From a virus: DNA of 55,487 bases. The position numbers were made by a program, and so were the translations under genes. Where the stretch lies: positions 1 to 55,487 of IMG/VR virus record IMGVR_UViG_3300045988_108176, one strand, 5' to 3'. This document shows positions 3,200 to 54,788 of this stretch, in pieces; the first letter of the stretch is position 1, and each line of letters starts with the position of its first letter. The notes under the pieces are model-generated. The model did no database searches. It was not told the origin of the DNA and worked only from the letters and a program-made list of their open reading frames with translations.

Positions 3200-4069
3200 A
3201 TGATATACGTGAATAATGAAATATATCATCATGGCGTAAAAGGACAACGATGGGGGTTTAGACGTTATCAACCTTATCCAAAAGGAAAGCACGGAAAGTT
3301 TCTCGGACAAGATAGAGACAATGATATAAAAATCGATAAAGGTACTGACGTATATCGAGTTCAACAAAAAGGACAATTTTACACTAAAACACCGGGTCGT
3401 AGAATGTATGTGACTCTTGATAAAATTGACGCTTTTAATTATGCTTCTGCTAGCGCAGGATTAGACGGTGCTGGATTGCATGTTGAAATGGTAAATCATG
3501 ACACTGGTGAGATAGCAACGATGAAACTAAATAAGAATGTAATTATACCTTCTTATGAGAAAGTAATGGACGCGTTTATTAAATCGTTTGACGGTTTAAA
3601 GGTTAAGGATGCTGCTAAAGAGATGTATAAAGCTGATGAACCCGGTATCGATAAAGGCGAAAAAGTCTATAGAAATAAATTAGTTAAAGAGTTTTTAAAT
3701 GAAGTTAAAAACATTGAAAAAGATGACGCCTTAGATAGAGCATACATTTCATTCGTAGGAACTTTCATGGATGATTCGAAAGCTAAGCGCGCTTTCTTTA
3801 AAAACTTAAGCGACCAAGGTTATAATGCGATTATCGACGATTTTGATGTAAAATTCGGTAGCGATAACAAAAGACAAAATTTCATTGAGTCGATGATACT
3901 TTTTAATAATAATGATGTATCTTTCCATAAAGCTTTGCCTATATCAGATAAAGACGCAAAATATTTATCTGATATATGGATGAACGGAGCCAGAGACAAG
4001 ACTGTTCGACGTCGTAACAAAGAGAGCGCTCGTAAATTCGACAAATGGGTTAGTTATCCTATTAGTTAA
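3200..4069 (+). CDS. hypothetical protein with N-terminal HHGVKGQRWGFRRYQ module (paralogue of the 5160 N-domain)
   Basis: Motif at aa 9-27. Downstream similarity to the 5160 ORF (GT.vYR, GYNA..D). Confidence 0.6.
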   Translation: MIYVNNEIYHHGVKGQRWGFRRYQPYPKGKHGKFLGQDRDNDIKIDKGTDVYRVQQKGQFYTKTPGRRMYVTLDKIDAFNYASASAGLDGAGLHVEMVNHDTGEIATMKLNKNVIIPSYEKVMDAFIKSFDGLKVKDAAKEMYKADEPGIDKGEKVYRNKLVKEFLNEVKNIEKDDALDRAYISFVGTFMDDSKAKRAFFKNLSDQGYNAIIDDFDVKFGSDNKRQNFIESMILFNNNDVSFHKALPISDKDAKYLSDIWMNGARDKTVRRRNKESARKFDKWVSYPIS

Positions 4070-4128
4070 GATAACCGACTCACGTTAAATAAAAAATTTA
4101 AAAATCAAAATGGGAGGAGGCGGTAATA

Positions 4129-4428
4129 TTGGCTAATAAAAAAGCTAGCTTTTTAACCCAAGAAGGAAAAGAAAATCATTTGATATCTTTGGCGATGGAT
4201 GCTGCTGAAAAACAGCTTATAGAAGGAACTGCCTCTTCTCAGATAATAACTCATTATCTGAGACTAGCTACGGTTAAGTATCAGCTTGAGTTGGAATCGC
4301 TGAAGGCAGAAAATGCACTCAAAGCAGCCAAGACAAACGCCATAAACGATTCTAGGGAAGACAAAGAATTATATTTGAAAGCTATTGAAGCTTTCTCGAA
4401 ATATTCAGGCGAAGATGAAGAACTATAA
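4129..4428 (+). CDS. possible terminase small subunit (TTG start)
   Basis: 99-aa helical protein directly upstream of HNH and TerL. GGGAGGAGG SD lies 8 nt before TTG. Function is inferred from position only. Confidence 0.35.
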   Translation: MANKKASFLTQEGKENHLISLAMDAAEKQLIEGTASSQIITHYLRLATVKYQLELESLKAENALKAAKTNAINDSREDKELYLKAIEAFSKYSGEDEEL

Positions 4429-4825
4429 CGAATTAATAGTATTGAAAACATTTGACGAAAGACTTGATTATTTACGTTTGTTTTCTAACGTTTGCGAAAA
4501 CACTTTCGGAGGAAATAGATATTTTAATCAAAAGTTCTACATGTCAGAAGAATGGAAGAAGATTAGAAGAAATGTTATCATACGTGACAACGGATGCGAT
4601 ATGGCTTTAGAAGGTTATGACATAAATACCAAGCATGACCGAATAATGATACATCATATAGTTCCTATTACTTATGATGACATAATCAATCATAGCCCTA
4701 AACTTATAGACATGAACAATTTAGTCTGTGTTCGCTACAATACGCATAATTTAATACATTATTCCAGAGACAATGGTTCTTTTGAGTACACGCCTAGATT
4801 TAAGAATGATACTAAATTATGGTGA
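4415..4825 (+). CDS. HNH endonuclease (terminase-associated)
   Basis: IRDNGCD...HHIVP...N..VCVRYNTHNLIH is an HNH motif. ATG 4415 overlaps the end of the upstream gene. Confidence 0.8.
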   Translation: MKNYNELIVLKTFDERLDYLRLFSNVCENTFGGNRYFNQKFYMSEEWKKIRRNVIIRDNGCDMALEGYDINTKHDRIMIHHIVPITYDDIINHSPKLIDMNNLVCVRYNTHNLIHYSRDNGSFEYTPRFKNDTKLW

Positions 4826-4829
4826 ATAC

Positions 4830-5156
4830 ATGGAAGAAAGTATATTAACAACTATAAAAAACATGTTAGAGATAGACTTGGACGACGACTGCTTTGATGA
4901 GGAATTAGTTACATATATAAATACTTGTTTTATAACGTTAAAACAAGTAGGCGCCATAGATTACGACTTCTATATCGCCGATAAAACTACAAGTTGGTCT
5001 GATTTATTAAAGGATAAAGTGTCGTCGTTCCAATCTTTAAAAACATACATATATGCTCGTGTTAAAATATTGTTCGACCCTCCGTCTTCATCGACTTTAT
5101 CATCATATGAAAATTTAATTCGGGAATTAGAGTTCCGATTAGGAATGGAGAATTAA
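4830..5156 (+). CDS. gp6-like head-tail connector / DNA-packaging-type protein (putative)
   Basis: N-terminus IKNMLEIDLDDDCFDEELVTYINTCF matches the Phage_connect_1-type pattern. Start is ATG 4830. Confidence 0.4.
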   Translation: MEESILTTIKNMLEIDLDDDCFDEELVTYINTCFITLKQVGAIDYDFYIADKTTSWSDLLKDKVSSFQSLKTYIYARVKILFDPPSSSTLSSYENLIRELEFRLGMEN

Positions 5157-5159
5157 TTT

Positions 5160-6605
5160 ATGGGATATGAGTTACAGCATCATGGTGTAAAAGGACAAAG
5201 ATGGTATGTTAGACGGTATCAGAATTATGACGGGTCATGGACTGATAAGGGACGAGAACGTTATGGAAAAGACGTTAATAAATCAGCTAATAAAGTTGAA
5301 AGTCGAGAATTCTTAACGGAAGAACGTTCTATACCTGCTGGTACAAAAATGTATCGAACGTCCGTTAACCCCAATGAAAATCAAAATGGTTCTGTTTATG
5401 TATCATACTTAGACCCAGAACGGAACTTATATAAGGGTGGATGGGTTAGAAACACATCATATGCATATAAATCTTACGAGTATAGTTTTACTTTGAAGGA
5501 TGACTTAAAAATACCAAGCCGTCAGACTCAATCGAAAGTAATTTCAGATGTAATAAACGAAGACAAAAATAAAACATTACACGATATAGTTTGGAATAGA
5601 AGTTTAATGCTCTTTGGTGATTACATGCTTAGAGACCTTATTAAACATAATTATGACAATAAAGCCAAAAAATTTGTAGACGAGCAAATACACAACGTTT
5701 ATAAAGGTATGGGTGCCGACCAATTAGCATATTATGCAGCTCAAACGTTTGGATTAAATACTAAACTAAAAGATGAAGTTATACGTAGATTATCTAAAAT
5801 GGGTTACAATGCTATGGCGGATGAGGCATCTATCGGAGGACGTTACGGACAAATAAAGGAAGGATACGACCCCTTGATATTATTTGATAGAAACCTTTTG
5901 AGAACAGATTCAGTTGATAATATTTCTAGAAGAGAAGAACAGAAAGCAGCTAAAGCAGCTATAAAATGGCGTGAAAAAGCTAAGAAAAAGTCAGTTGCTT
6001 GGAGTGTCGATTTTACAGACAATGCTTTACAGCATCATGGTGTAAAAGGACAACGATGGGGCTTTAGACGATATCAGAATTATGACGGGTCATTAACCGC
6101 CGCCGGTAGACGTAGAATAGGTCAAAATTACAAAGCACAGTTAGCTGTTGAAAAACGAATCGATAAAATAAACAAGAAACGGGACAGTAATCGAAAAGCA
6201 ATAAAATTAATAATTGAGAACAAAAAGTTAAAAGACTTAAAAGAAGAAGAAGATTTATTGCTGAACAAGAAGATATGGGATATACAGAGATATGCTCCGA
6301 TTGCTAAAAAAAGTGCACTAGCTAAGGTTGGAGGTTGGTTATTAAAAGACGTTGTAGCTCCTCCGATTAAAGCGGGTGGTCAGAAAATAATCGGGAAAGC
6401 AATATCGCCCATTGTCGATAAGCTAACCGTAAATTCCAAAATAGTGGATAAAGAGACTAAACAGATGAATAAAACAATAGCAGATAAAGTTAAGAAAATG
6501 TTTAAAAACATGAAACACAAAAAAACAAGCGATTTAAACGTTGACGAATCGTTCGATGAAATGACTGAACGTTTAATCGAATACTTTAATAAAAAGGAAT
6601 TCTAA
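5160..6605 (+). CDS. hypothetical protein with two HHGVKGQRW modules (aa ~6-30 and ~291-315)
   Basis: Two ~70-nt near-identical DNA segments (5172-5240, 6027-6095). C-terminal lysine-rich coiled-coil-like tail. Confidence 0.6.
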   Translation: MGYELQHHGVKGQRWYVRRYQNYDGSWTDKGRERYGKDVNKSANKVESREFLTEERSIPAGTKMYRTSVNPNENQNGSVYVSYLDPERNLYKGGWVRNTSYAYKSYEYSFTLKDDLKIPSRQTQSKVISDVINEDKNKTLHDIVWNRSLMLFGDYMLRDLIKHNYDNKAKKFVDEQIHNVYKGMGADQLAYYAAQTFGLNTKLKDEVIRRLSKMGYNAMADEASIGGRYGQIKEGYDPLILFDRNLLRTDSVDNISRREEQKAAKAAIKWREKAKKKSVAWSVDFTDNALQHHGVKGQRWGFRRYQNYDGSLTAAGRRRIGQNYKAQLAVEKRIDKINKKRDSNRKAIKLIIENKKLKDLKEEEDLLLNKKIWDIQRYAPIAKKSALAKVGGWLLKDVVAPPIKAGGQKIIGKAISPIVDKLTVNSKIVDKETKQMNKTIADKVKKMFKNMKHKKTSDLNVDESFDEMTERLIEYFNKKEF

Positions 6606-6607
6606 GG

Positions 6608-8350
6608 ATGTTATCAAATGTTGCTGCTCCAAAGTATTATTCTATGTTTAGACAAAAAGTAATACGCGGAGAAATTTTTGTAAACAAGCAAGTCGAAATG
6701 CAGATGAACCGCATAGACGAGTTAATACAGAATCCAAACTATTACTATGATGATAGTATTGTTGAAGGATTTATATTTTTTTGTGAAAATGAATTAACTT
6801 TAACTGACGGAGACGATTTACATTTATTAGATTCGTTTAAACTATGGGCTGAAGATTTACTTGGCTGGTATTACTATATAACAAAAAGTGTTTATGTACC
6901 AGACGGGGCTGGCGGAGGTCGATATGTTAATAAACGCATTAAAAAACGACTACGCAGCAAGCAATACCTTATAGTAGGACGAGGTGCATCTAAGACATTG
7001 TACGATACATGTATACAAGCATACTTTCTAACTGTAAATAAGAAAGCATCTAAACAAGTTACAGTAGCATACACTATGCGTCAGGCAGAAGAAGTACTCG
7101 GGCCTTTAAAAACTGCTATTTTGCGAAAACGAGGGCCTGTTTTCAAGGTATTAACAATCGGTTCTAAGTATAATACCACTGGAGACCCAGAGACCAGACA
7201 AAAATTAGCGTCTACTAAAAAGGGAATAGAGAACAGATTAAACGGTTCCACACTAGAAGTGTATCCTATGTCGATAGATAAACTTCAAGGTCTAAGAAGT
7301 TCAGTTAATACAATCGATGAATGGTTGTCGTGCGACATACGAGAAGACGTAGTTGCCGCTGTAGAACAAGGTTCATCTAAAAATAACGATTACGTTATCG
7401 TTGCTACATCATCAGAAGGAAACGTTAGGAATGGTCCCGGTGATACAATCAAAATGGAGTTAATGCGAATTTTAAAAGGTGAATATTACAATCCGCATGT
7501 GTCTATATGGTGGTATAAACTTGACGATGTTGCCGAAGTTTCTCATCCTGAAATGTGGGTGAAAGCTAATCCTAATATTGGTCTGACGGTCTCTTATGAA
7601 ACATACCAGTTAGACGTTGAACGAGCAGAAAATAACCCGTCAGTAAGAAATGAAATACTTGCTAAACGTTTTGGGCTACCTATGGAGGGTTATACGTATT
7701 TCTTTACTTATGAAGAAACGTTAAAATCGAATATAGTTAGCGACTATAGACAACTTCCGTGTGCTTTAGGCGCAGACTTATCCAGAGGTGATGATTTCTG
7801 CTCTTTCACTTTTATGTTCCCAATGGGAAACGAGAACTATGGTATAAAAACACGTAACTACATAACCGAACAAACATTGTACAAATTACCGTTAGCTCTT
7901 AGAAGTACTTATGAGACTTTTATCGACGAAGGTAGTTTAATCGTTACAAATGGTACTATTTTAGATTTAAGTTATGTGTACGAAGAATTGTATCAATACA
8001 TAATTGACCAACAATTGGATGTTCGATGCTTAGGATATGACCCATTTAACGCTGGAACATTCGTAGAAAAATGGGAACGAGATTTTGGGCCGTACGGTAT
8101 AGAAAAAGTGATACAGGGGTTCAAGACAGAATCGGTGCCATTAGGAGAAATAAAGAAATTAGCTGAATGTAGGTTACTACATTTCGACCAAAACATCATG
8201 CAATTTTGTATGGGTAATTGTATCGTTATGGAGGATACTAACAAAAACAGAAAACTCACTAAAAAGAGAAACGATGAAAAAATCGACGCCGTTGCAGCTT
8301 TGCTCGACGCGTTTGTAAGTTTTAAACTTCACAGAGATATGTTCGATTAA
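6608..8350 (+). CDS. terL: terminase large subunit
   Basis: 580 aa. Walker A-like LIVGRGASKT, IDEW Walker B-like segment, C-terminal nuclease segment EKIDAVAALLDAF. Sits next to HNH. Confidence 0.85.
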   Translation: MLSNVAAPKYYSMFRQKVIRGEIFVNKQVEMQMNRIDELIQNPNYYYDDSIVEGFIFFCENELTLTDGDDLHLLDSFKLWAEDLLGWYYYITKSVYVPDGAGGGRYVNKRIKKRLRSKQYLIVGRGASKTLYDTCIQAYFLTVNKKASKQVTVAYTMRQAEEVLGPLKTAILRKRGPVFKVLTIGSKYNTTGDPETRQKLASTKKGIENRLNGSTLEVYPMSIDKLQGLRSSVNTIDEWLSCDIREDVVAAVEQGSSKNNDYVIVATSSEGNVRNGPGDTIKMELMRILKGEYYNPHVSIWWYKLDDVAEVSHPEMWVKANPNIGLTVSYETYQLDVERAENNPSVRNEILAKRFGLPMEGYTYFFTYEETLKSNIVSDYRQLPCALGADLSRGDDFCSFTFMFPMGNENYGIKTRNYITEQTLYKLPLALRSTYETFIDEGSLIVTNGTILDLSYVYEELYQYIIDQQLDVRCLGYDPFNAGTFVEKWERDFGPYGIEKVIQGFKTESVPLGEIKKLAECRLLHFDQNIMQFCMGNCIVMEDTNKNRKLTKKRNDEKIDAVAALLDAFVSFKLHRDMFD

Positions 8351-8463
8351 TAAACTATTTGGTTAGGGGTGAATTTTTTAAAAAGAGGCGATTCCATTGC
8401 AGATTTTATAAAACCGAAACTTGAGTGTCAATACAACTAAGAAACGAAAGGACGGTATGTATT

Positions 8464-9045
8464 ATGGAATTGGAACAGAAACAACATAGTAGTGGTGTAG
8501 CTAAAGCTGGTTTGACAACCGGAATAATTGGTAGTTCTTTGGGTGCTTTGAGCTTGTTAAGCGGGCTTCCTTCTTATCAGAATCGTAATTTTCAAAATGG
8601 TGCTTGTCAATGTGAAAGCGACCATATTGTAAGTCGATATGAATTAGACCAATCTCAGGAAATCGCGAGACTTAAATCCGACCTCGCTCTTAGAGATGCT
8701 AATATTTACGGTGACCAGAAGATGCTGGAGTTATACCGTTATATCGATGCAAAGTTTATTGAATTTGAAAAGCAGTTCGCAGCCCAAGCAGTAACAGAAC
8801 AGGCAAATCGAGATTCGTTTAGTATGCTTAACGAGCGTATTGGTTGTCTTAAAACTGAACTTTGCGGAGCTATAGCTAATGAACGGCATGAACGGCGTTG
8901 TTCTGATAACACTATCGTTACGTACTCGAATGCTACGTTTTATCCCAAACAGGTAGCGGACATTACAACAGGCACTGCAACTACCGCTCAGGTATTGTAT
9001 AATCCGTTACCTGCTGAAACGTGCGATTGTAATTGTTGTAGATAA
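8464..9045 (+). CDS. hypothetical membrane-anchored coiled-coil protein with Cys-rich C-terminus
   Basis: N-terminal hydrophobic segment GLTTGIIGSSLGALSLL and C-terminal ETCDCNCCR. Preferred start is ATG 8464. Confidence 0.5.
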   Translation: MELEQKQHSSGVAKAGLTTGIIGSSLGALSLLSGLPSYQNRNFQNGACQCESDHIVSRYELDQSQEIARLKSDLALRDANIYGDQKMLELYRYIDAKFIEFEKQFAAQAVTEQANRDSFSMLNERIGCLKTELCGAIANERHERRCSDNTIVTYSNATFYPKQVADITTGTATTAQVLYNPLPAETCDCNCCR

Positions 9046-9083
9046 TTTAATAAAAATCAAGTAATAGTTTATTGATATTTTGA

Positions 9084-9118
9084 CAGAAGAGGTCTCCCCT
9101 AGCCTCTTCTGGTTTTTA
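9084..9118 (+). terminator. rho-independent terminator
   Basis: 9-bp perfect stem cagaagagg/cctcttctg, 10-nt loop, then GTTTTTAT. Confidence 0.7.
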
Positions 9119-9130
9119 TGGAGGTTAAGT

Positions 9131-9475
9131 ATGGTAAGTATTAGTAAAATTGAAACAGGATTAGCTAAATTTATCGATTCCGAGTTAATTGATAAGTTGG
9201 AGTTAAACGGATGGAAACGTTTAGTAACTGCTAGTGTATCTAGTATTTTTATTAAAAAACTTTCTAATATACTATCTAAACTTCAAAAGAATTCTTTCGT
9301 AGAGATGTTAGAATTGTTTGATGAAAACGGTGACGTTGACTTAGATTTAGTTTATAGCGAAATCAAAGCAAATATGCCTGAATCTGGAATAAAAATTGAA
9401 ATACCGGGCATATCAATCGGTGTGACTCTGAAGAATAACGATATAGATACTTTGTATAAATACATGATTGAATAG
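9131..9475 (+). CDS. hypothetical protein
   Basis: GGAGG is 7 nt upstream of ATG 9131. The track start 9080 lies inside the terminator. Confidence 0.5.
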   Translation: MVSISKIETGLAKFIDSELIDKLELNGWKRLVTASVSSIFIKKLSNILSKLQKNSFVEMLELFDENGDVDLDLVYSEIKANMPESGIKIEIPGISIGVTLKNNDIDTLYKYMIE

Positions 9476-9838: not shown

Positions 9839-11113
9839 ATGGGAATTCTAAGTAAATTAAAAGACGTGTGGTCAGTTTTTAAAAATAGAGACCCCACTAT
9901 TGAATATCGTGATATCGGTATGAGTTCATCCGTTAGGTCAGATAGATTATACGGGTACCAATATGGTATAAAAAATCTACAGACGTCTATATATACTAAG
10001 ATAGCTATGGATGTATCATACGTAAACATTCACCATGTTAAGCTGGATGAGATGGGTCGTTTTAAGGAAATAATTCACAGTCCGCTTGATGAATGTCTTA
10101 ATTTAAGCGCAAATATTGACCAAACCGGTAGATATTTGATACAAGACGCTGTAGAAACTATGCTGTATAATGGTAGCGTGGCATTAGTCCCTGTCTTGAC
10201 TAACGATGATATTTTTAATACTGAATCGTATGATATATACAAACTGAGAGTTGGTAAAATCTTAGAATGGTATCCGATGCATGTGAAAGTGTCCGTCTAT
10301 AACGAAGACGACGGCAAAAGGTATGACGTGGTTGTGCCTAAGAATTCGACATGCATAGTGGAGAATCCATTTTATTCAATAATGAATGAACCTAACTCTA
10401 CTATCAGTAGATTAAATAGAAAGTTAAGTCTACTTGACGCGTTCGATGAAGAACAAAGTAGAGGAAAACTTAACTTGATTATACAGTTACCGTTTAGTAC
10501 AAGAACAAATCTTATGGAACAGAGGGCGCAAGAGCGTCTTGAATCTATAGAAAAGCAACTTGTTGGTTCTAGATATGGAATAGGCTACATCGATTCGAGC
10601 GAAAAAGTAACACAATTGAATCGGTCACTTGAGAATAACTTACCGGAACAGATAAAGTATCTAACAGATACATTTTACTCTCAATTAGGTATAACTGAAG
10701 ATATACTTAACGGCAGGGCTGATGAAATAATGATGTTGAATTATTACACTCGCGTTGTTGAACCGATAATATCGGCGTTTACAAACGAAATGAAGCGTAA
10801 GTTTTTGACAAAAACAGCTCGGTCTCAACGTCAAAGTATAGAATTCTTTAGAGACCCGTTTAAGTTAGTTACGGTAGACAAGATAGCGTCTATATCTGAT
10901 ACTATGAAACGCAATGAGATAATGACATCTAACGAAATCCGTCAGATAATAGGATTTAAGCCCACAGGCGATAGCAAGGACGATAAACTTGTTAATCCGA
11001 ATATTTCGCAGCCTAAAGAAACGGAAACTGTTAACGAAAACATTAAAACAGTAGATTTGAATAATAAAGAACAAAATCAAAATGGAGATAAAATAAATGG
11101 CAACAACATATGA
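9839..11113 (+). CDS. portal protein (putative)
   Basis: 424 aa, immediately upstream of and overlapping the protease-capsid gene. Assignment rests on size and position. Confidence 0.65.
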   Translation: MGILSKLKDVWSVFKNRDPTIEYRDIGMSSSVRSDRLYGYQYGIKNLQTSIYTKIAMDVSYVNIHHVKLDEMGRFKEIIHSPLDECLNLSANIDQTGRYLIQDAVETMLYNGSVALVPVLTNDDIFNTESYDIYKLRVGKILEWYPMHVKVSVYNEDDGKRYDVVVPKNSTCIVENPFYSIMNEPNSTISRLNRKLSLLDAFDEEQSRGKLNLIIQLPFSTRTNLMEQRAQERLESIEKQLVGSRYGIGYIDSSEKVTQLNRSLENNLPEQIKYLTDTFYSQLGITEDILNGRADEIMMLNYYTRVVEPIISAFTNEMKRKFLTKTARSQRQSIEFFRDPFKLVTVDKIASISDTMKRNEIMTSNEIRQIIGFKPTGDSKDDKLVNPNISQPKETETVNENIKTVDLNNKEQNQNGDKINGNNI

Positions 11114-12866
11114 TTTTAGTGGTTGGGCATCTAAGTCTAACGTAAGGTGCACTGATGGTAGAATCATTCTCAACAACGCGTTTGCTGATAATGATAACGA
11201 TAAAGTGCCCCTCGTATGGAATCATGACCATCAAGACCCCAGTCGCGTTTTAGGCCATGCTATGCTTAAGAACGTTCCTAATGAGGGCGTATACGCATAT
11301 TGTAGCTTTAATGATACTAATGACGGTCAGCGAGGAAAAGCACTGGTTCAGCACGGTGACATTACATCTCTGTCAATTTATGCGAATCAGCTGCAGGAAA
11401 ATGACGGTCGTGTACGACATGGAAACATCAGAGAAGTATCTTTGGTTTTAGCTGGAGCTAATCCGGGTGCCAAGATTGATGATATTATTGTTCACAGTGA
11501 CGGTATGGATTCAGAAGCGATTATCTATTCCGGTGTTGAAGGTATTGAGTTGTCTCATGCCGACGATGATGAAAATAAAAAACCCGAAACTAAACCGGAA
11601 GATAATTCTGACACCGACAATCGAACTGTGGAAGATGTCATTAAAACATTTAATGACGAGCAGTTAAAAGTGTTTTATGCATTGATTGGCCTTGCTATGT
11701 CTGGCGAACTCAATGACGACAAAAAAACAAATACAGAAAATAATAAAAAAGATAACGAAGACAAAATTAATCATTCAGAAGGAGATAATGAATCGATGAA
11801 GAATCTTTTCGAAAAAAACGGCAATCCGGAAACAAATAATACGAACGACGAACTTATTCATACTGCGTTAAATACTATTATTAATGACGCACAGAGTATG
11901 GGTTCTCTTAAAAAATCGTACATTCAGCACGCAGACGAATACGGTATCAGTAATATTGACTACCTGTTCCCTGATGCAAAAAATAATACAACCGTGCCTG
12001 AGTTAATCAAGCGTGATACTGATTGGGTTAATCAGGTTATGAGTTCAGTAAGTCACAGCCCGTTCTCTAGAATTAAGAGCATTTTTGCTGACATCACTGC
12101 TGATGAGGCTCGTGCTAAGGGTTACGTTAAGGGAAACCTCAAAATGGAAGAAGTTATTACTACTCTTCGCAGGGTAACCACGCCCGTTACTATTTACAAA
12201 AAGCAGAAGCTCGACCGTGACGATATCATTGACATCACCGATTTCGACGTTGTATCGTTTATTAAGTCCGAGATGCGTACTATGCTCGATGAAGAAATTG
12301 CTAGGGCGATTTTGGTTGGCGATGGTCGTCTTCCTGACGATTCCAATCATATCAATGACCAGAACCTTCGTGCTATTTATAAAGACCACGACCTGTATAC
12401 TATCAAGGCTAGGGTAAACGTAGCAAAGGCTGCTACTTCCGATGAAGTGGCTAAGGAATTTATTAGAACAGTTATTAGGACTCGTAAAGACTATAAGGGT
12501 TCTGGCAATCCTGTTCTCTACACCACCGAAGATTATGTCACCGACTGTCTTCTCATGGAAGATAAGAACGGTCGTGTAATCTATGACAGTGTCGATAAGC
12601 TCGCTACCGCTCTTCGTGTGGCAAAGATTGTTACTGTACCTGTTATGGAAAATATGAACGGTGCTACTGGTAAGCCGCTCATGGGTATTATTGTAAACCT
12701 TAAGGACTACAAGGTAGGTGCTGATAAGGGCGGTTCAATCAATATGTTTGAAGACTTCGACATCGACTACAACCAGAATAAATACCTTATTGAAACACGT
12801 ATCAGTGGCGCACTCGTTAAGCCGCATAGCGCCATCGCACTTGAACTCTATCGAGCAGATAGCTAA
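11097..12866 (+). CDS. prohead serine protease (S78/U35-like) fused to a linker and major capsid protein
   Basis: N-terminus VPLVWNHDHQD...GDITSLSIYA...IREVSLVLAGANPGAKI fits an HK97-type protease. An acidic low-complexity linker follows. The C-terminal ~300 aa are capsid-like (EEIARAILVGDGR). Confidence 0.7.
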   Translation: MATTYDFSGWASKSNVRCTDGRIILNNAFADNDNDKVPLVWNHDHQDPSRVLGHAMLKNVPNEGVYAYCSFNDTNDGQRGKALVQHGDITSLSIYANQLQENDGRVRHGNIREVSLVLAGANPGAKIDDIIVHSDGMDSEAIIYSGVEGIELSHADDDENKKPETKPEDNSDTDNRTVEDVIKTFNDEQLKVFYALIGLAMSGELNDDKKTNTENNKKDNEDKINHSEGDNESMKNLFEKNGNPETNNTNDELIHTALNTIINDAQSMGSLKKSYIQHADEYGISNIDYLFPDAKNNTTVPELIKRDTDWVNQVMSSVSHSPFSRIKSIFADITADEARAKGYVKGNLKMEEVITTLRRVTTPVTIYKKQKLDRDDIIDITDFDVVSFIKSEMRTMLDEEIARAILVGDGRLPDDSNHINDQNLRAIYKDHDLYTIKARVNVAKAATSDEVAKEFIRTVIRTRKDYKGSGNPVLYTTEDYVTDCLLMEDKNGRVIYDSVDKLATALRVAKIVTVPVMENMNGATGKPLMGIIVNLKDYKVGADKGGSINMFEDFDIDYNQNKYLIETRISGALVKPHSAIALELYRADS

Positions 12867-15522: not shown

Positions 15523-15912
15523 ATGGCACAAATAATCAAAATAGATAGTCGTGGTAATTTTAAAAAGTCTAAAAAATTATTATACTCGTTGCCAGATATT
15601 ATAAAAATAAGTGTTCTGGAGAAATACGGAAAAATTGGTGTACAAAATTTAGAAAAGTACACACCAAAAGACACCGGTTTAACATCTAAGTCATGGTACT
15701 ATACAATAGAGACCGACAATAGAGGTAAATATTCTTTGATATTTCATAACTCTAATATACACAATTATGTTAACATAGCGATAATTTTACAAACAGGACA
15801 TGCCACTGGAAACGGCGGATGGGTTGAAGGAGTAGATTATATTAATCCAGCCCTAAAGCCGGTGTTTGAAAAGATGGTGGATGAGGTATGGGCGGAGGTG
15901 AAATATTTATGA
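15523..15912 (+). CDS. HK97 gp10-like tail-component protein
   Basis: YTPKDTGLTSKSW...LQTGHATGNGGWVEGVDYINPAL pattern. Confidence 0.45.
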   Translation: MAQIIKIDSRGNFKKSKKLLYSLPDIIKISVLEKYGKIGVQNLEKYTPKDTGLTSKSWYYTIETDNRGKYSLIFHNSNIHNYVNIAIILQTGHATGNGGWVEGVDYINPALKPVFEKMVDEVWAEVKYL

Positions 15913-18900
15913 GTGGCAAAGGAGTAGACGAAAGAATATTATCGATGAAGTTCGATAATGCATCGTTTGAAAAGAATGCCAAGGTAACTATAAACACATT
16001 AGATAAATTACAACGGACTTTGGACACAACAAAATTGTCCAAAGATATATCCAATTTATATTCTTATGTGACAAAAATCGGAACTGAAGTGAAGACTTTT
16101 ATAGCTATAAAGTACGCTATAAAAGGTATTGACGCCGCGCTTAAAAGTGTAACAGAAGGCGGTAAACGTCGAGCTGAAAACCTTGAAAATGCACACTTCC
16201 AGTTACAAGGTTTATTAAAAGACGAAGAAAAAGTTTCGGAAATAATGAACGACGTTAGCAAATCTGTTGACGGAACAGCATATGGATTGGACGCAGCTGC
16301 TAAAGTAGCTTCTCAGTTAGCAGCGTCAAACGTTAAAGCTGGAGACCAGATGTTTACCGCTTTAAGGGGTATAGCTGGTGTTGCAGCCATGACCAATTCG
16401 TCGTATGAAGATATCGGCAGGATATTTACGCAGGTAGCTGGACAAGGACGTTTGATGGGCGACCAGTTATTGCAATTGTCAGGCAGAGGTATGAACGCTG
16501 CGGCTACACTAGCTGAAGAATTCGGACTTACAGAAGCTGTTGTTAGAGATATGGTATCGAAAGGTCAAATCAGTTTCGATATGTTTGCTCAAGCAATGGA
16601 TTCTGCATTCGGAGAACATGCGAAGAAAGCTAACGAAACGATGACCGGTGCGTTATCAAACGTAAAATCTGCGTTAGGAAGAATAGGTGCTTTATTCTAT
16701 TCTCCGCTGATTGAACAAAACGGTGCATTAGTTCAATTATTTAATGCTCTTAGGGTAAAAACAAACGAATTAAAAGACGCGTTGGCTCCGACAATTTCTA
16801 AAATAGTCGATATAGCTATCAAAGCTATAAACTGGGCAACATCTATAATTAATAAAATAGATTTTTCAAGTATAGCTTCTAAAATCCTAAAACCGTTCAC
16901 AGCGGTTAAGCAGACGTTTGATGATATAGGAACTAGGGTACAATCAACATCTAAAATAATAACTAACGCTTCGGATGTTATAAACGAAGTTATTAATGGA
17001 AAATGGGACGTTGGTGCTAAACGTTGGGATAAACTTACCAACGCCGGTTATAACTGGGTAGCAGTTCAAAATGGAGTAAATGAAACTCTTGGTTCTACGT
17101 ATAGACATGCAGAACAATTATCTAATACAATAGACGATTTAACTAATAATGTTTCTGATAGCAACCAAGTAATAAATTTAAGTAACAACACATTAGCGTT
17201 AACAAAAAGAAACTACGCAGCTACGAAAACGTCTGTTTCTGGATTATCTGACGCAATGTCACAATTAAGTATATACGCTAATAAAGCCGGATATTCTGTA
17301 GACGATGTGGTCAAAGACCATAGTCTCCTGTCTATGTCGAGTTTATTATTAGACAGTCTATCCAATATAGTTAAAATAATAAAAAGTCTCGGCAAGTCAA
17401 TTGCCAAATCGTGGAATAACGTCTTCGGTAGCTTAGACAATGTAAATCCGGTTTTCAATCTTATCGCTGGGTTTAGAAAGTTAACTTCTGAGCTACAAAT
17501 CACAGAAGAAGTATCAGACAAGATAACGCGAACATTCAATGGATTATTCGCGGTATTAGATTTAATTAGAATGGTCGTTGGTGGAGGCGTTTCACTAGCG
17601 ATGAAAGCCATTCGTTTTATTTTTGAGACGTTTGGCTTAAAAGTTTTAGACGTCACAGCTGCATTGGGTGACGCAATAGTAGCAGTTAGGAACTGGATAA
17701 AAAATACTTTAAAGAGTTCCGGAATTTTAAACGGAATAAAACGAATATTAACACCGATAATCAAGCTTATAGTAGATGCGGCCAAATCAATCTATAATTG
17801 GGCTAAAGAAAACAATTTATTAAATAAAATAGCGTCAGGTTTAGGTACTATTTTACAAGGTGTAGCATACTTTATAGAAAAAGTAGTTACCAAAGTCGTG
17901 GATTGGATAAAAAACAGCAGTCTTTTAAGAAATATTTTAACTAAAGTCGGAAGTGTAATATCTGAATTAATAGACAAAACGTCAAAATGGATTGACGGAT
18001 TAAAAAATACAGATAGTATACCTGAATACATTATATCTGGATTGGTAAGCGGATTAACTAGCGGTATCGTTAAAGTTAAAGAAGTCGTTGGACTTTTAGC
18101 AAACGCTATATTATCAACTTTACGGGAGATTTTAGGAATACATTCACCTGCTAGAGTTCCTATGGAATACGGCGAATTGACTGGTGAAGGATATTCAATA
18201 GGTTTAAGTCATGCAAATGAAAAAGGTGTGCAAGCCGCTACTGAATTCACTGGTAAAGTCCTAACTACTATGAAAGACATAACTGTAGATGGCGTTAGAA
18301 ATCTTGTTTCTAATATGCCTAAAATTATGGATGTTATATCGAAAATTCCATGGGGTTCCATAGTTTTCGGCGGAATGGCTATAGCTTTAGTTAAGGGCGT
18401 CGGAAAATTAAATACAACGATAGATAAAGTAGGCGCTATTATTGCAAACAATCCGTTAACTATTTTAACAAAAGCCGTAGAAAATTATACCGCTGGTATG
18501 AAAAATTTGCTGACTGAGTTAGGAAAAGCTAAGAAAATAAAAGCAATAACGCAGATGATGTATTCGGTAGCAGTTAGCATTGGCGTATTAGCCGCATCTA
18601 TATATCTTTTGTCTAAGGTAGATAAAGGAGGTATGGTTCGAGCGATGATAATGATTACGTTTATAGCTGCTATATTAGCGGCTCTTACGTCGTTAATGTA
18701 TCTGCTCGATAAGAAATCATCGGCTTGGAATAAAGTTGGTAAAGACGCAAAAATCATAAACAGTACAGTACTGAATATGATAGGTATAGCTGCAAGTTTC
18801 TTACTGATGGCTACGGCTTTTAAGACGTTAGCCAATATAAAGCAAGAGAACGTAGCTCAAGCTATAGTTATGATGGGCGCTTTATGGCTTATTGCTCTTA

Positions 18901-21900
18901 CATTGATGCCTCTATCTGTTATATCGAATAAAGTTAATGGCGCCGGAAAAACTATGTTATACATAGCCGTTTCATTTTTAATAATGGCTAAAGTTATGAA
19001 ATACGTAGGAAAATTGGATTCCGATACGATATTTAAAGGTTTAGCCACATTGAACGCCTTTAAGTGGATGGTTATACAGATGATGGCCATTAACGGGCTG
19101 TGTAAGTCAATGAATAACGCCGGAAAGAATATGCTATACATATCCGTAGCGTTTTTAGTCATGGCGAAAGTCGTAAAATACGCGGGTAGCATATCTGAAA
19201 AAGATACAAACAGAGGAATAAATACATTAAAGAAATTTACTGGTCTTGTAATAGCATTAATGGTAGTTCAAGGCGTTATTGATTTCCTTAATTCGAACGG
19301 TGGTAGTTCGAAACGAGCTTATAGTAATGTCGGTAAAATGATATTATACATAGCTATCGCGTTCGGATTAATGACGTTAGTTATAAAAGCTATATCTAAA
19401 ATAAGCGACAAAAACTTAAAACGAGGAATAACTGTTTTATGGATATTTGCAGGCTTAGTATCTGCATTAATTGCAGTTGGTCATTTTCTTGGTGACGTTA
19501 AAGGAAGTGCTTTATCTACAGGCGGCGCTATATTATTGGTCACAATATCAATGCTCGGTATGGCTATAGTCGCTGGTATTATAGGTTTTATTCCGATAAA
19601 TATGCTAAAAAAGGGCGTAACTGTCGTAGGTATTTTCGGATTAATAATAATGGGCCTAATGAAATGCGCGTCGTATGTAAAACCAGACGCTAAGAAAGCA
19701 TTAGGTTCTGTTTTAGCCTTAATGATAACTATGGCTGCCATAGTTGTTATATTTTCATTAATAGACACTAAGAAATTATATGAGTCTGTCGGAGCAGTGG
19801 CAATATTATCAGCATTGATAGCGGGATTAATGATAGCAACTGGATACGTTAAACCTAACGACGACGCATTAAAGGGCCTTAAAAAAGTAATGATTGTTTT
19901 AGTAGTAGTTGCTGCAATTATCGTCGTAATGGACCAATTTGGCGTTAATGGTGAAACTGCGTTGAAGAATGCTATCGCAATAGGCGTCATATTCGTAGCT
20001 CTTGCCGCGTCATTATTTATATTATCGAAAATAGAAAAAGTTAGCAAAGACGCTATAACTGCATTATATATAATAAGTCCAATGTTAATAATAATTGGAG
20101 CTGTTTTATTAGCATTAGATAAATTTAACGTCCAATCTAATATCACTAATGTAATTAGTTTGGCTGTCCTTATAAATGCACTATCGGCTGCGGTATTGAT
20201 ATTAAGTCAGTCGAAAGAGATAAAAAAGGGCGTACTAAAATCATTAGTAATAATGTCACTAGTAATGGGTATATTAGGTGCCATATTATTAGCGATGGAT
20301 AAACTTAATGTCAAAGCAAGTCTTAAAACAGCATTTGCTTTGGCTATTTTAATAAACGCATTGTCGTCGGCTGTCGTAATATTATCGTACGCTAATGTTA
20401 CACTAGACGAGAGCGTTATAAAAACAATGTTAGCTTTAATATTAATGGTTTGTGGAGCTATGTTATTAATTTCGGTGGCTTTGTTAATGTTAAAGAACGT
20501 AAATAATGCTATTCCAAGCGCTCTAGCTTTAACTACAATTATGCTGGCAATGGTACCGTTAATAATCGCGTTAGGTTTAGTTGCAGCAGTTTTATCGTTA
20601 GATGTTCTTGGCGCTGGATGGAAAGCAGCTATGATTATATTAGCCGGTGTTATAGTGTCCATGTTGGCTATAGTCGGTGTTTTAGCGTTAATGCAAGGCA
20701 TAGACAATGCTACTGCAAATGCAATAATATTAGTATTCTTACTCAACGCGATGTCAGATGTATTAATTAAAGTAGCGCCATTAGCTCCGTTAGCTTTAAT
20801 AGCTAGTGTAGCTATAGGAGCATTATCGGCTGTATTAGTTGTATTAGGAGGTTTAATAACCGTAATTGGTGCCCTAACATCAAAATACCCTCAAATAGAA
20901 GATTATATTAATAAAGGCGCTCCTATCATGATTAAACTTGCCAACACAGTAGGACAAATGATTGGCGCGTTTATAGCCGGTATAGCCGAAGGAATAATGC
21001 AAATTTTACCTGCATTTGGTCAGGCACTTAGTGACTTTGCTAACAATTTAAATAAGGGTTTCATAGAAGTAATGAAACTCGCCGCCGACGAGCAGGTTCT
21101 TACTGGTGCCGGAATTTTAGTAGCTTCTATATTAGCATTATGCGTAGCCCAATTAATTAACGGGATAACTAATTTACTACCGTTCGTTCCTAGTATGTTC
21201 GACCTTGGCGTTCAATTAAGCAAATTTGCTGTTGCATCTATACCGTTTATTATTGCTTGTAAACAAATGGGACCTGATGGAGCAATGGGAGCACAAGCAT
21301 TATGCGAAGCATTAATGATGATAACAAAGGCTGAACTACTCCAAAGTTTAACCGGTTTCATAGAGTTTTTTACTGGTTCAAGTGATTCGTTTGATACCAT
21401 GTTATCAAAATTAGTATCATTCGGTTATGCTGCGGTAGAGTTTTCCAACGCCGTATCTGGTAATATCGATGTCGAAGCTGTCACTGCTGCTGTATCTATA
21501 GGTGAAATGATTACTTCATTACAAGAAGCAGTACCGGCAGTCGCGGCATTTAATGATGCTGACTTCGATTCATTTAGTGCATCAGTAGCTGGTTTTGGAT
21601 TTGCCATGGTAGCCATGAACAACGCGTTAACAGATGAAGAAGGTAACAGTGTAATAAACTTAAACGCAATAGACACTGCAAAGAAAGCCGGATTATTAAT
21701 GACAGAATTGGCTGATAAAATTCCTAAACGTAAAGGTTGGGTTACTAAAATAATGGGTGAAGCTGACCTAGGTGTATTTGGAGCAAGTTGCGCCGCATAT
21801 GGTGCTGCTATGGTTTTGTTTAGTAATACTGTTACTGATTCTGAAGGTAAGAGTAGATTAAATACAGAATCGATTAAAGCTGCTGCAGATGCTGGCGGAA

Positions 21901-50467: not shown

Positions 50468-50486
50468 TAAAATAGTAAAAATCTAT

Positions 50487-51875: not shown

Positions 51876-54788
51876 ATGAACATATCATATGATTTCAATG
51901 ATATTTATGAAAATGAAAGTCACATAGAGCACTATGGTATGCCTCGTCGTTCAGGGCGTTATCCATGGGGGTCTGGTGATAATCCGTTTCAACACGAAGG
52001 CTGGTATAAGCATCCGGGTGACTTTCTAGACTTTATTAAACAGGCTAGAAAAGAGAAATATGAATATACGGATGAAGACGGAGTGTTATACACAGGTGAT
52101 AATGCTATAGCTAAGGTTCTTCGTATCTCAACGACTGATTTAAGGAGTCAGATTGGTATAGCTAAGGATGAAAAACGTCTTTACGATGTTTATAGAGTTG
52201 AGTCTTTAAGAAAAGATGGTCTTAATGATTCTGAAATTTCAAGAAAGACCGGAATACCGTTGTCGACAGTTAAATCTCTGTTCGACGCTGATTCTAAACG
52301 AAGAATGCTGCAGGCTAAAAATGCTGCTGAATTCATAAAGAATCGAATCGATGATGTCGGTATGGTTGATGTCGGTACTGATGTATGTCGAGAGCTTGGC
52401 ATAAGTCAGGAAAAAATGAACCAAGCATTGACAATACTTAAATCCAAAGGATACAAAATCTACTCTGGACGAGTAGAGCAACCTACTAATAGAAAACAGT
52501 TTACTACGATGAAAGTTGCATGTCCTCCGGGCACAGAACATAGAGAAATATATGAAAATTGGGGAAATGTTAACTCGTTGATTGAATATACTTCGGACGA
52601 CGGTGGACAAACATTTAGAAAAACTCAATATCCTGCTTCTCTTGAGAGAAAGAGAGTTATGATTCGATACGCAGATGACGTTGGGCCTGATGGTTTTAAA
52701 GGTATTCAAAAAGATGGTGTAATCGAAATACGAAGAGGCGTTAAAGACTTATCTCTTGGCAACTCTATGTATTCACAGGTTCGTATTCTTGTAGGTAAAG
52801 ACAAATACCTTAAAGGAATGGCTGTTTATGCTGACGGCAAAGATATGCCTGACGGTGTTGATGTAATATTTAACACCAATAAGTCGTCAAATAAATCATT
52901 TGATGAAGTATTAAAAAGCATAAAAGAGGATGACCCTAACAATCCGTTCGGAGCATTGATTAAAGCTGATGGTCAGTATGAGTATGTCGATTCCAATGGC
53001 AAAAAGAAACTTTCTCCTATTAATAAAACTAGAGAAGAAGGAGATTGGGACGAATGGAAAAAGGCTGTGCCTAGTCAGTTCTTATCCAAACAACCTAAGT
53101 ATTTAGCTAAAAAGCAAATCGATTTGGCTATAGCTGAGAAAAAAGATGAATTGGCCGAGATAATGTCTTACAATGTACCTGAAGTACAACGATATTATCT
53201 AAACAAATTCGCTGAATCCTGTGATAAGCAAGCTGAAACACTTCAAGCGGCATCGTTTCCTGACCAGCACTACAACGTAATCCTTCCTATAAACTCACTT
53301 AGGAACAACGAAATTTATGCGCCTAGGTATGACAACGGAACTAAATTAGCTTTGGTAAGGTATCCTCATGGCGGAACATTTGAAATACCTATACTAACAG
53401 TTAATAACCGTAATAAAGAAGGTGAAAAAGTTATTGGGCCGTCGTCCATTGATGCTGTTGGCATAACATCTGAAGTTGCAGCTCGATTGTCAGGCGCTGA
53501 CTTTGATGGAGATACTGTAATGTGTATTCCGACAAACGACCCTGAAGGAAAGATTAACATCTTATCGACTGCGCCGTTAGCTGGTCTGAAAGGATTCGAC
53601 CCCAAAGATAAATTCCAAGGTAATTTAGTTAAAACAGTCGGAGATACTAAGATTTATGAGCGTAATGGAGTAAAGTTTAAAGGTATGCTTGCCACTCAAA
53701 AGGAAATGGGTGTAGCAACCAATCTAATTAGTGACATGACAATTCTCGGCGCATCTGACGATGAGCTTGAACGTGCTGTCAAATACTCTATGGTAGTTAT
53801 CGATGCTGAAAAACATGGATTGGACTACAAGGCTGCATACTACGAGTATAACATACAAGATTTAAAAGACCGTTATCAGATTAAAGCTAACGGAAAAACA
53901 GGTGGTGCTTCTACTTTGTTAACCAGAGCTAAAAGTGCTGAGTATGTTAATCGTAGAAAAGGTTCTCCTAAAGTTAATGTTAAAGGAAAACCTTGGTATG
54001 ACCCTTCAAGACCTGAAGGTTCTCTCATATGGCAGGAAGACCCGGACCAAATTGCAACATTTAAAAAGTATGACCCTAAAACTGGCGAATTAATCTCAGT
54101 TAAAGAGGTCGAGAAGAAAACAAAAATTTCTAAAATGGCTGCTACAGATGACCCAAGGACTTTAATCTCTACGTCTAACACCGTAATGGAGAATCTGTAC
54201 GCGGACTATGCGTCTACATTAAAGTCGTTGGCCAATCAGGCTCGTCTAAACGACGTATTCTCCGAGAAGGCAAAAAGAGACCCCGTCGCTACATCTAAAT
54301 ACGCGGAAGAGGTACAGTCTCTTAAGAGAAAATTGGATTTAGCACTCCTGAATAGACCCAGAGAGCGTGCCGCTATCCGTCTAGCCACTTCAGAAATCGA
54401 AGGTATACGTACAGCGTATAAAGACAAGCACGGTGGTAACGACATGCCCACGAAAGACCTCAAAAAGCTCTCCCAGAATACTATGGTTAAATATAGGGGT
54501 CTTGTAGGGTCTATAAAACGTAGCGATAGAAATATAAAAATAACAGAACCGGAATGGGAAGCTATTAAAAATAGGGCTATATCGGAAAATGACCTCAAGA
54601 AAATTTTAGACAATTCTGACCCCGATGTACTAAGGGAAAAACTTAGACCTAAGGGCGATGACGGTCTCACCGATGCTCGTAAATCAGCCATCCGAGCCAT
54701 GGCGAATAGCAATTATACCCTAAAGGAAATTGCCAAACGCTTTGGAATATCAACATCCACCGTATCAAATATAATAAAGGGGGGTTAA
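51876..54788 (+). CDS. candidate single-subunit two-barrel RNA polymerase (YonO / RdRP-like) with HTH segments and an HYG...GRYPWGSG N-terminal module
   Basis: LALVRYPHGGTFEIPIL...AARLSGADFDGDTVMCIP (DFDGD at nt 53499-53513) parallels beta-prime NADFDGD and the QDE-1 LSGGDYDGD context. HTH-like segments are LNDSEISRKTGIPLSTVKSLF and YTLKEIAKRFGISTSTVSNII. Confidence 0.5.
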   Translation: MNISYDFNDIYENESHIEHYGMPRRSGRYPWGSGDNPFQHEGWYKHPGDFLDFIKQARKEKYEYTDEDGVLYTGDNAIAKVLRISTTDLRSQIGIAKDEKRLYDVYRVESLRKDGLNDSEISRKTGIPLSTVKSLFDADSKRRMLQAKNAAEFIKNRIDDVGMVDVGTDVCRELGISQEKMNQALTILKSKGYKIYSGRVEQPTNRKQFTTMKVACPPGTEHREIYENWGNVNSLIEYTSDDGGQTFRKTQYPASLERKRVMIRYADDVGPDGFKGIQKDGVIEIRRGVKDLSLGNSMYSQVRILVGKDKYLKGMAVYADGKDMPDGVDVIFNTNKSSNKSFDEVLKSIKEDDPNNPFGALIKADGQYEYVDSNGKKKLSPINKTREEGDWDEWKKAVPSQFLSKQPKYLAKKQIDLAIAEKKDELAEIMSYNVPEVQRYYLNKFAESCDKQAETLQAASFPDQHYNVILPINSLRNNEIYAPRYDNGTKLALVRYPHGGTFEIPILTVNNRNKEGEKVIGPSSIDAVGITSEVAARLSGADFDGDTVMCIPTNDPEGKINILSTAPLAGLKGFDPKDKFQGNLVKTVGDTKIYERNGVKFKGMLATQKEMGVATNLISDMTILGASDDELERAVKYSMVVIDAEKHGLDYKAAYYEYNIQDLKDRYQIKANGKTGGASTLLTRAKSAEYVNRRKGSPKVNVKGKPWYDPSRPEGSLIWQEDPDQIATFKKYDPKTGELISVKEVEKKTKISKMAATDDPRTLISTSNTVMENLYADYASTLKSLANQARLNDVFSEKAKRDPVATSKYAEEVQSLKRKLDLALLNRPRERAAIRLATSEIEGIRTAYKDKHGGNDMPTKDLKKLSQNTMVKYRGLVGSIKRSDRNIKITEPEWEAIKNRAISENDLKKILDNSDPDVLREKLRPKGDDGLTDARKSAIRAMANSNYTLKEIAKRFGISTSTVSNIIKGG

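Follow-up and report, generated by a model that had tools for sequence, protein, structure and literature searches.

A short conserved peptide on variable proteins encoded around the terminase of a siphovirus lineage, and a related motif on its RNA polymerase, as a candidate tag for loading cargo into the phage head

We analyzed a stretch of viral DNA of 55,487 nucleotides (nt), positions 1 to 55,487 of IMG/VR record IMGVR_UViG_3300045988_108176 (hereafter the window), which is an apparently complete phage genome of ~55.5 kb with essentially every gene on the + strand. Two of its proteins, orf3200 and orf5160, carry a short conserved peptide, here called the tag, and a related motif stands near the N-terminus of the predicted RNA polymerase of the same phage. 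In this phage and its relatives, the tag introduces every functional unit of a changing set of proteins whose genes surround that of the large terminase subunit (TerL), and it marks the N-terminus of the polymerase. The tag is probably an address label, and its most likely use would be the loading of proteins into the virus head. In its full form, which we put somewhat short of an even chance, this interpretation describes a lineage-specific tag for both loading and processing, by which variable effectors, perhaps along with the polymerase, would enter the head and be delivered together with the DNA.

Three strong copies of the tag are present in the window, all on the + strand. The product of orf3200 (3200..4069) is 289 amino acids (aa) long, begins MIYVNNEIYHHGVKGQRWGFRRYQPYPKG, and carries an N-terminal tag (copy 1, aa 7-29, EIYHHGVKGQRWGFRRYQPYPKG, 3218..3286), followed by an alpha/beta domain of the phrog_7502 family (E=2.6e-13). 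The product of orf5160 (5160..6605; 481 aa, beginning MGYELQHHGVKGQRWYVRRYQNYDGS) is a fusion of two tagged units. Unit 1 (aa 1-285) consists of a tag (copy 2, aa 4-35, ELQHHGVKGQRWYVRRYQNYDGSWTDKGRERY, 5169..5264, with the core ELQHHGVKGQRWYVRRYQNYDGS at aa 4-26) and a second phrog_7502 domain (E=7.1e-14), and unit 2 (aa 286-481) consists of an internal tag (copy 3, aa 289-320, ALQHHGVKGQRWGFRRYQNYDGSLTAAGRRRI, 6024..6119, with the core ALQHHGVKGQRWGFRRYQNYDGS at aa 289-311) and a helical part that resembles phrog_32444. Translations and a six-frame motif scan place the three copies where the original prediction had put them, and the scan of the whole window found no further copy of the HHGVKGQRWG.RRYQ form. 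The Pfam model DUF7211 (PF23847, a 25-residue domain of unknown function (DUF) with a curated cut-off of 27 bits) matches orf5160 in two stretches with 39.4 bits (E=3.8e-10), best at aa 286-306; its match to orf3200, at 22.8 bits (E=5.8e-5), lies under the cut-off. The tag of orf3200 is clearly related to copy 3, with 17 of 24 residues identical. A search of NCBIfam gave no family for either protein.

The original prediction regarded orf3200 and the first half of orf5160 as paralogs, and this is borne out both by BLASTP (25% identity over 301 columns, E=3e-8) and by their common match to phrog_7502. It also took the DNA likeness of the two copies within orf5160 as a sign of recent duplication or gene conversion. 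These copies are identical at 61 of 69 nt (5172-5240 vs 6027-6095), and where their amino acids agree, 17 of 19 codons are the same, with 8.2 expected from the codon usage of the genome (p ~2.5e-5). Since both copies are present in relatives of only 72% identity, they are old, and we dropped recent duplication; gene conversion, which fits the codon identity, or a constraint at the nucleotide level is left to account for the likeness. The units themselves are separate genes in some relatives: homologs of 280-310 aa cover unit 1 only, and one related locus (L004) has two separate tagged genes in the orf5160 slot, one per unit type, in reversed order.

Beyond the window, the module of the original prediction proved very widespread. 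A tag profile of 42 columns, searched against 1.84 billion representatives of 50% identity clusters, matched 44,031 clusters at E≤1e-3 and 24,026 at E≤1e-10, on many types of cargo, with 1-5 copies per protein and a longest protein of 1,569 aa. The tag either opens a protein or introduces an internal unit; in proteins of the first kind, its first copy begins 4-27 residues (median 9) after the N-terminus. The consensus of the DUF7211 form is L.HHGVKGQKWGVRRYQN.DGSLT.AG..RY, or in extended form L.HHG(I/V)KGQKWGVRRYQN.DGSLT.AG..RY, and sub-variants end in ..GPPYPL or, as in orf3200, in RRYQPYP. We rejected the notion of genes that consist of a stand-alone tag: the example examined, a tag-only open reading frame (ORF) of 43 aa (L007 6001-6132), is a frameshift artefact that continues into the overlapping ORF 6086-6571 at a G5 run. 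A word-indexed search with the profile was misleading in that it gave nothing longer than 74 aa. The protein database contains 884 tag matches of ≤74 aa, many of them on very short contigs, and on the strength of the one example examined these probably include more frameshift or contig-end fragments and not mini-genes.

In the samples examined, most loci that carry the tag share head and packaging genes. We sampled loci around the 80 best-scoring tag matches in GTDB contigs (one genome per species) and, as a second set, the 80 best-scoring matches in IMG/VR; these yielded 46 and 47 long loci (≥12 kb), respectively. A TerL of the window type is encoded in 45 of the 46 GTDB loci and 46 of the 47 IMG/VR loci (91/93 together; the TerLs of the window lineage in the IMG/VR set show 56-99% identity), a window-type portal protein in 43/46 and 46/47, and a fusion of prohead protease and capsid protein in 41/46 and 42/47. 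The polymerase gene lies within 8 kb of the tag in 32 of the 46 GTDB loci. Hosts in GTDB are mainly Clostridia (Lachnospiraceae, Oscillospiraceae, Ruminococcus and Christensenellaceae), and some of the matches, in contigs of several hundred kb, are prophages. Among GenBank phages, the tag was matched in 49 records, every one of them from a group that is also found among the tblastn matches of the polymerase. There is thus a strong case that a single large siphovirus lineage, with members from gut and soil, accounts for the tag in the samples examined; this lineage is defined by a YonO-like RNA polymerase, a packaging set of HNH endonuclease and TerL, the portal, and the protease-capsid fusion. 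The YonO-like polymerase is the published signature of a supercluster that includes the Streptomyces BI, Arthrobacter AM/AU/AW, Gordonia DJ, Rhodococcus CC and Lactococcus 1706-like phages and Faecalibacterium phage FP_oengus (bioRxiv 10.1101/842583).

The tagged genes also keep to one neighborhood of the genome. In the window, the main slot for them is bordered on the left by a head-tail connector (4773..5156, +; PF24829 Phage_connect_2, 97 bits), which lies between the HNH gene and orf5160, and orf5160 is followed by TerL (6608..8350, +; PF20441 and PF03354), the lineage marker that co-occurs with the tag. Across 73 related loci that have the TerL of this lineage, tagged genes number 108 between connector and TerL, 46 between TerL and portal, and 25 ahead of the connector. 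Another 11 follow TerL in loci where no portal lay in range, and not one comes after a portal; in 36 cases the tagged gene is the polymerase itself. Each locus has 1-7 tagged genes, and in the Lactococcus phage P078 both gp007 and gp008 are tagged and lie between connector and TerL. Placement around the packaging genes, which the original prediction had noted in this one genome, is therefore a property of the related loci as well. The TerL-portal slot, which carries tagged genes in many relatives, contains in the window (8425-9475) two ORFs, at 8425 and 9080, with no tag and no family match, the first of which combines a hydrophobic segment with a C-terminus rich in Cys (CDCNCCR); the portal gene follows (9839..11113, +; PF04860 and phrog_12).

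What follows the tag differs between proteins and includes the phrog_7502 domain, helical or transmembrane segments, and enzymes. The tag occurs on at least 14 PHROG families, one of which (phrog_35934) is annotated as 'virion structural protein', and the idea of a separable tag on otherwise different proteins is upheld by this diversity. Among 149 multi-copy proteins, most units have no recognizable domain; the recognizable ones include GNAT acetyltransferases (~6-7), a papain-fold deamidase toxin (5; 'papain fold toxin 1' glutamine deamidase, Gln_amidase), sigma-70 r4 domains (~3; sigma-70 r3/r4) and CW_7 repeats (3). In gp6 of the Streptomyces phage Kardashian (L001 2374-3393), a 2H phosphoesterase is followed by an internal DUF7211 tag and finally by the C-terminal 'core' part, which is conserved; the DUF7211 model matches Kardashian gp6 and gp9 as well as FP_oengus AUV56562. 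The phosphoesterase belongs to the 2'-5' RNA ligase superfamily, and the protein, annotated as hypothetical in its record, is a candidate for a delivered anti-defense or RNA-repair enzyme. One recurrent tagged protein is small (~170 aa) and consists of the tag, the motif MSDKELRDRINR..E..Y and a C-terminal hydrophobic helix. At least 54 of 87 long loci encode it, it is also present in FP_oengus, in Kardashian gp6 and in P078 gp007, and unit 2 of orf5160 is a diverged form of this protein (phrog_32444).

In the AlphaFold models of orf5160 and orf3200, every copy of the tag has a low predicted local distance difference test (pLDDT) score of ~37-76: ~37-49 over the first 30 residues of orf3200 (copy 1), 50-76 for copy 2, and below 50 over aa 283-302 of orf5160 (copy 3). 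The domain that adjoins the tag in orf5160 exceeds 90, and residues 31-270 of orf3200 reach ~62-95 with dips near 88-93 and 221-230. These models suggest that the tag is a peptide of ~25-40 residues with no confident fold, probably disordered. Sequence searches of the PDB with the tag profile, orf5160 and the polymerase gave no match. Foldseek searches of both models gave no significant match in the PDB, the best being a chain of a cyanophage pre-ejectosome (E=0.17), and only uncharacterized proteins of the same supercluster in BFVD. Toxins of the ADP-ribosyltransferase (ART) fold appeared among the nonsignificant PDB matches (Tse6, E=0.47 and 2.4; EcPltA, E=3.6), aligned with the downstream domain and not the tag. 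The conserved GT.MYR, YVSY and E residues of the phrog_7502 domain are suggestive at most of that fold, which we treat as only a lead. A likeness to choline-binding or YD-type beta-hairpin repeats was dropped, there being no such Pfam match.

Internal tags are often preceded by a short motif that recurs in the capsid gene of the lineage. A junction motif [K/N/R..]H[SAD][DEAS] (e.g. KHSD) precedes 40% of internal tags at a distance of no more than 35 aa, compared with 1% of control windows; it lies 4-26 residues before the tag (median 12), a spacing that resembles the distance from N-terminus to tag in proteins that begin with it. In the window, the S78 prohead protease, an acidic linker and the HK97-type major capsid protein form a single ORF of 589 aa (11097..12866, +; PF04586 and PF05065; phrog_3270, 688 bits), an arrangement previously noted for the Arthrobacter AM/AU phages (PMC5513430). 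The linker is very acidic, and in the fusions of this lineage it contains 3-4 copies of h-x-H-[SAG]-[DE], which occurs at most 1-2 times elsewhere. The copies in the window (VHSDG, SHADD, NHSEG, IQHAD) are possible self-processing sites, and the fusions also bear a conserved MKHNVFD...LSH directly before the capsid domain. Taken with the junctions, the motif suggests that H|(S/A/G) may be the site of the prohead protease and that the tagged proteins may be its substrates.

The polymerase carries its own form of the tag. It is a YonO/RdRP-like single-subunit two-barrel RNA polymerase of 970 aa (51876..54788, +) that matches phrog_4291, annotated as an 'RNA-dependent RNA polymerase' family, over aa 12-968 with 1021.6 bits. 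Its catalytic loop DFDGD (GADFDGDT in the translation) fits the DxDGD of the two-barrel family, and its C-terminus has a sigma-r4-like helix-turn-helix (HTH; Sigma70_r4 and HTH_23 at aa 930-968); there are >8000 homologs. The 'distant version' of the module that the original prediction saw at the start of this ORF (aa 17-40, IEHYGMPRRSGRYPWGSGDNPFQH, 51924..51995, +) turns out to be a real conserved motif, since 114 of 120 homologs read L.HYG(M/I/V)(P/K)RRSGRYPWGSG near residue 15, continued in the full consensus by (D/E).PYQH(G/S), and the other 6 read HIG. Polymerases of Gordonia, Arthrobacter, Streptomyces and Lactococcus phages have the motif as well. It ends in PYQH[GS] in 88/120 homologs, an ending that again shows the H-[SAG] of the junctions, and in QH followed by any residue in 102/120.

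The DUF7211 hidden Markov model (HMM) has no match on the polymerase, and the profile likeness between the two forms is weak; we regard the polymerase form as no more than a sister motif of the DUF7211 tag. Other observations bring the two forms closer. Some polymerases read HYGVKRRSG.., with HYGVK in common with DUF7211, and two orthologs of the N-terminal domain of orf5160 (P0082 and P0083) bear the polymerase-type tag. In a related gut phage (L003, MT835616.1), two ORFs that flank TerL (1305-1898 and 3657-4214) have polymerase-type tags and match the N-terminal ~100-135 positions of phrog_4291 (E=3e-10 and 6e-9); the first of them lies in the connector-TerL slot and has a C-terminal part that matches the usual 'core' tagged families. 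In this phage, the small tagged proteins seem to have gone over to the polymerase form. As far as sequences can tell, the shared HYGVK and the swapping of tags on orthologous cargo link the two forms in function.

As candidate functions, the original prediction had named capsid targeting, a prohead-protease site and an ejection signal. We propose the following mechanism for these observations. The tag, which is basic and aromatic, would dock on a lineage-specific component of the procapsid, for which the portal and the acidic, scaffold-like linker of the protease-capsid fusion are candidates, and docking would load the tagged proteins into the head. The prohead protease would cut multi-unit proteins at h-x-H|(S/A/G) junctions just upstream of the internal tags, and at infection the effectors, the conserved tail-anchored membrane protein and perhaps the polymerase as well would exit as cargo together with the DNA. 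We infer that the partner of the tag is encoded by the phage because a universal host target would not explain the restriction to one lineage, and a procapsid component would be the most economical choice. A more specific version, in which DUF7211 and its polymerase sister motif together form one system of cargo-loading peptides that brings a membrane protein, changeable enzymes and the RNA polymerase into the capsid, where they are trimmed at H|S/A/G and then injected with the DNA, is possible, but we consider it doubtful.

Several known systems offer parallels. The internal proteins IPI-III and the enzyme effector Alt of T4 share a short N-terminal peptide, are produced late, are loaded into the prohead and are injected, and the prohead protease gp21 removes the peptide (PMC5512222, PMC7697877). 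The present tag is likewise a short N-terminal peptide on unrelated proteins of a late operon. However, it has no sequence relationship with the T4 capsid targeting sequence, is longer (25-40 aa), is also found internally, and belongs to a siphovirus lineage whose S78 protease is fused to the capsid protein; and loading and cleavage, known for the T4 peptide, are proposals for the present tag. Toxins fused to MuF and polyvalent proteins are multi-domain polypeptides that have been proposed to be injected with the DNA (PMC5576092, PMC5512222). With MuF/SPP1 gp7 the tagged proteins share the neighborhood of head genes and the combination of a constant N-terminal part with variable effectors of deamidase and acetyltransferase type, a functional analogy only: we found no Pfam match to MuF (Phage_Mu_F) in orf3200 or orf5160, and the domain census of the 149 multi-copy proteins does not list it either. 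The constant part of MuF proteins is a folded portal-binding domain, whereas here it is a peptide without confident fold that is repeated before each unit, and the genes lie before the portal and not, as with MuF, after it. Compared with the polyvalent proteins of Iyer et al. (2017), which join domains of different enzymatic activities in a single polypeptide and are encoded alongside virion genes, the multi-unit proteins described here reach 1,569 aa and consist mostly of units without a recognizable domain.

Delivery of an RNA polymerase from the virion also has precedents, in the vRNAP of N4 (PMC5512222, PMC5576092) and, in a siphovirus, in the polymerase fused to the tape measure protein of P23-45 (PMC10770324). 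The polymerases of crAss-like phages (gp66) and P23-45 are two-barrel enzymes with a DxDGD loop, as is that of the window (PMC10770324). Compared with these virion polymerases, the family of the window enzyme is ~950 aa long, has its own sigma-r4-like HTH and is known from the gene alone. Finally, encapsulins use cargo-loading peptides: diverse enzymes share a short conserved peptide that guides them into an HK97-fold shell encoded next door. As a rule, these peptides lie at the C-terminus and recognize the shell protein of a bacterial compartment, whereas the present system belongs to a phage. The Pfam entry of DUF7211 records no function, and our literature search found no paper on DUF7211 and no publication on the N-terminal motif of the polymerase as a shared tag. 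The DUF7211 model misses the polymerase form and the small L003 proteins, and the links to the polymerase, to one lineage, to a multi-unit architecture and to a junction motif are not seen in its entry.

A number of points weigh against the loading of tagged cargo into the head. The closest characterized relative of the window polymerase, YonO of SPbeta, is not known to be a virion enzyme, and the head of a phage of ~55 kb has limited room for a polymerase of 970 aa and other cargo besides. An HMM of the junction region showed no significant match to the protease-capsid fusions (best per-domain E ~0.02-0.2), so that the proposed protease site comes down to a motif of four residues. An hhalign comparison of polymerase N-termini with DUF7211 aligned their first 11 columns (..L.H[HY]G..; P=1.3e-4, 54% probability), and on this weak profile evidence alone we do not call the two forms homologous. 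Tags of the polymerase type are rare on other proteins: apart from P0082 and P0083, they occur on 2 of the 467 tagged ORFs from the loci. The restriction to one lineage may be overstated, since the samples consist of best-scoring matches, and one tagged protein from a bovine metagenome (P0087) belongs to a phage without the lineage TerL within 10 kb. Lastly, our literature search turned up neither virion proteomics nor mapped N-termini for any member, FP_oengus and the 1706-like, BI, AM/AU, DJ and CC phages included; it did not extend to Summer 2011 and Garneau 2008, the likeliest sources of such data.

If the destination of the tag is not the head, the tag might instead bind a lineage-specific partner outside the capsid, or the tags might bind each other, so that tagged proteins and polymerase assemble with the tail-anchored membrane protein at the membrane or at a site of replication or transcription. 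The recurrence of the small protein with a hydrophobic helix in most long loci and in the FP_oengus, Kardashian and P078 isolates suits such an assembly; the restriction to one lineage would suit any phage-encoded partner, within the capsid or outside it, and low-confidence models are usual for short binding motifs. However, the tagged genes lie inside the packaging and head block and not among early or replication genes, the presence of the junction motif in the protease-capsid linker as well is a hint of proteolysis in the prohead, and the deamidase toxin, GNAT and 2H phosphoesterase cargoes resemble known injected proteins. We judge an assembly outside the capsid to be unlikely.

The tag could also be a short linear motif for a highly conserved host protein (e.g. 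RNA polymerase, ribosome or sliding clamp) that recruits effectors and the phage polymerase. Its strong conservation between phages of Actinobacteria and Clostridia, its basic and aromatic character, and the sigma-like and modifying enzymes among the cargoes are all compatible with a host target. A universal target, on the other hand, leaves the confinement to one phage lineage unexplained, as well as the clustering around TerL and portal and the junction motif before internal copies, and a host target thus seems distinctly improbable.

Slightly less probable again is a processing cassette only, in which the tag is a site of recognition or cleavage that splits polyproteins and has no targeting role. 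Proteins with as many as five tags and up to 1,569 aa, the fusing and splitting of units between relatives, and the resemblance of L.H(H/Y)G in the tag to h-x-H-[SAG] in the protease-capsid linker are what one would expect of it. Yet most tags stand at the extreme N-terminus of single-unit proteins, where there is nothing to separate, and 25-40 conserved residues far exceed the needs of a cleavage site. Moreover, an S78 protease that is fused to the capsid protein would act inside procapsids, and its substrates would then be inside anyway.

It is very improbable that the conserved stretch is kept mainly as a linker for recombination at the DNA level, which shuffles cargo cassettes while the peptide itself has little function. 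The codon identity of the two orf5160 copies far exceeds expectation, the cargo is highly mosaic, and synonymous codons are shared at 0.51 in within-genome tag pairs compared with 0.39 between genomes. But the within-genome excess is small given a shared codon bias (~0.43 expected in the window), and a between-genome synonymous identity of only ~0.39 beside a nearly invariant peptide indicates that selection acts on the protein; shuffling may be a by-product of the conserved tag. That the module is an inseparable part of a known enzymatic or structural domain has next to no probability, since the tag precedes many unrelated sequences, the Pfam model spans 25 residues, no PDB sequence matches, and a low-pLDDT tag lies beside a confident domain; the tag falls within no recognized enzymatic domain.

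If loading into the head holds, the consequences are considerable. A function would be assigned to a DUF found in >44,000 protein clusters, and a simple sequence rule would predict which proteins are carried into the cell, including candidate anti-defense effectors and toxins. The YonO-like polymerase family, with >8,000 members, would be predicted to be delivered from the virion, and on the more specific version phages of gut Clostridia as well as actinobacteriophages would start infection with their own transcription enzyme and with counter-defense proteins made in advance. Capsid-targeting tags and injected effectors are known; the unusual reach would lie in the inclusion of the phage's own polymerase. 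A defined loading tag of 25-40 residues could also serve to package foreign proteins into phage heads. The lineage has easily grown SEA-PHAGES isolates (Arthrobacter, Gordonia, Streptomyces), together with Lactococcus and Faecalibacterium phages.

A GH25 endolysin gene lies at 2318 in the window. Between orf3200 and orf5160, the ORF at 4129-4428, labeled TerS in the original prediction, matched only phrog_4259, a family with no assigned function, and that label is not sustained; it is followed by the HNH endonuclease (4385-4825) and the connector. As listed, these three ORFs overlap by ~40-50 nt and two have TTG starts, and their true starts are uncertain. The tape measure protein (15888-23471) is 2,527 aa long and includes a CW_7 cell-wall-binding repeat, a type of repeat that is also cargo on three tagged proteins elsewhere. 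At 50480-50840 and 50939-51024, 10-nt AAAAGTGGGC-like repeats of either orientation lie in a dense array, several perfect inverted repeats among them, which looks like an iteron-type origin or a regulatory region. ORFs listed on both strands over this array are probably artefacts of the repeats, and a tRNA-Leu(TAA) gene comes after it. The bovine-metagenome protein P0087 (L005 10001-12049, 682 aa) consists of a DUF5662 domain, a degenerate tag (LSGIKGQRWG), a Rossmann-like segment and a second tag, with a weak match to DUF6582 at aa 606-653 (E=0.009, below the Pfam cut-off). Its gene lies among small genes of early type, and its phage and the window (35981-36850) both have DUF6353 proteins.

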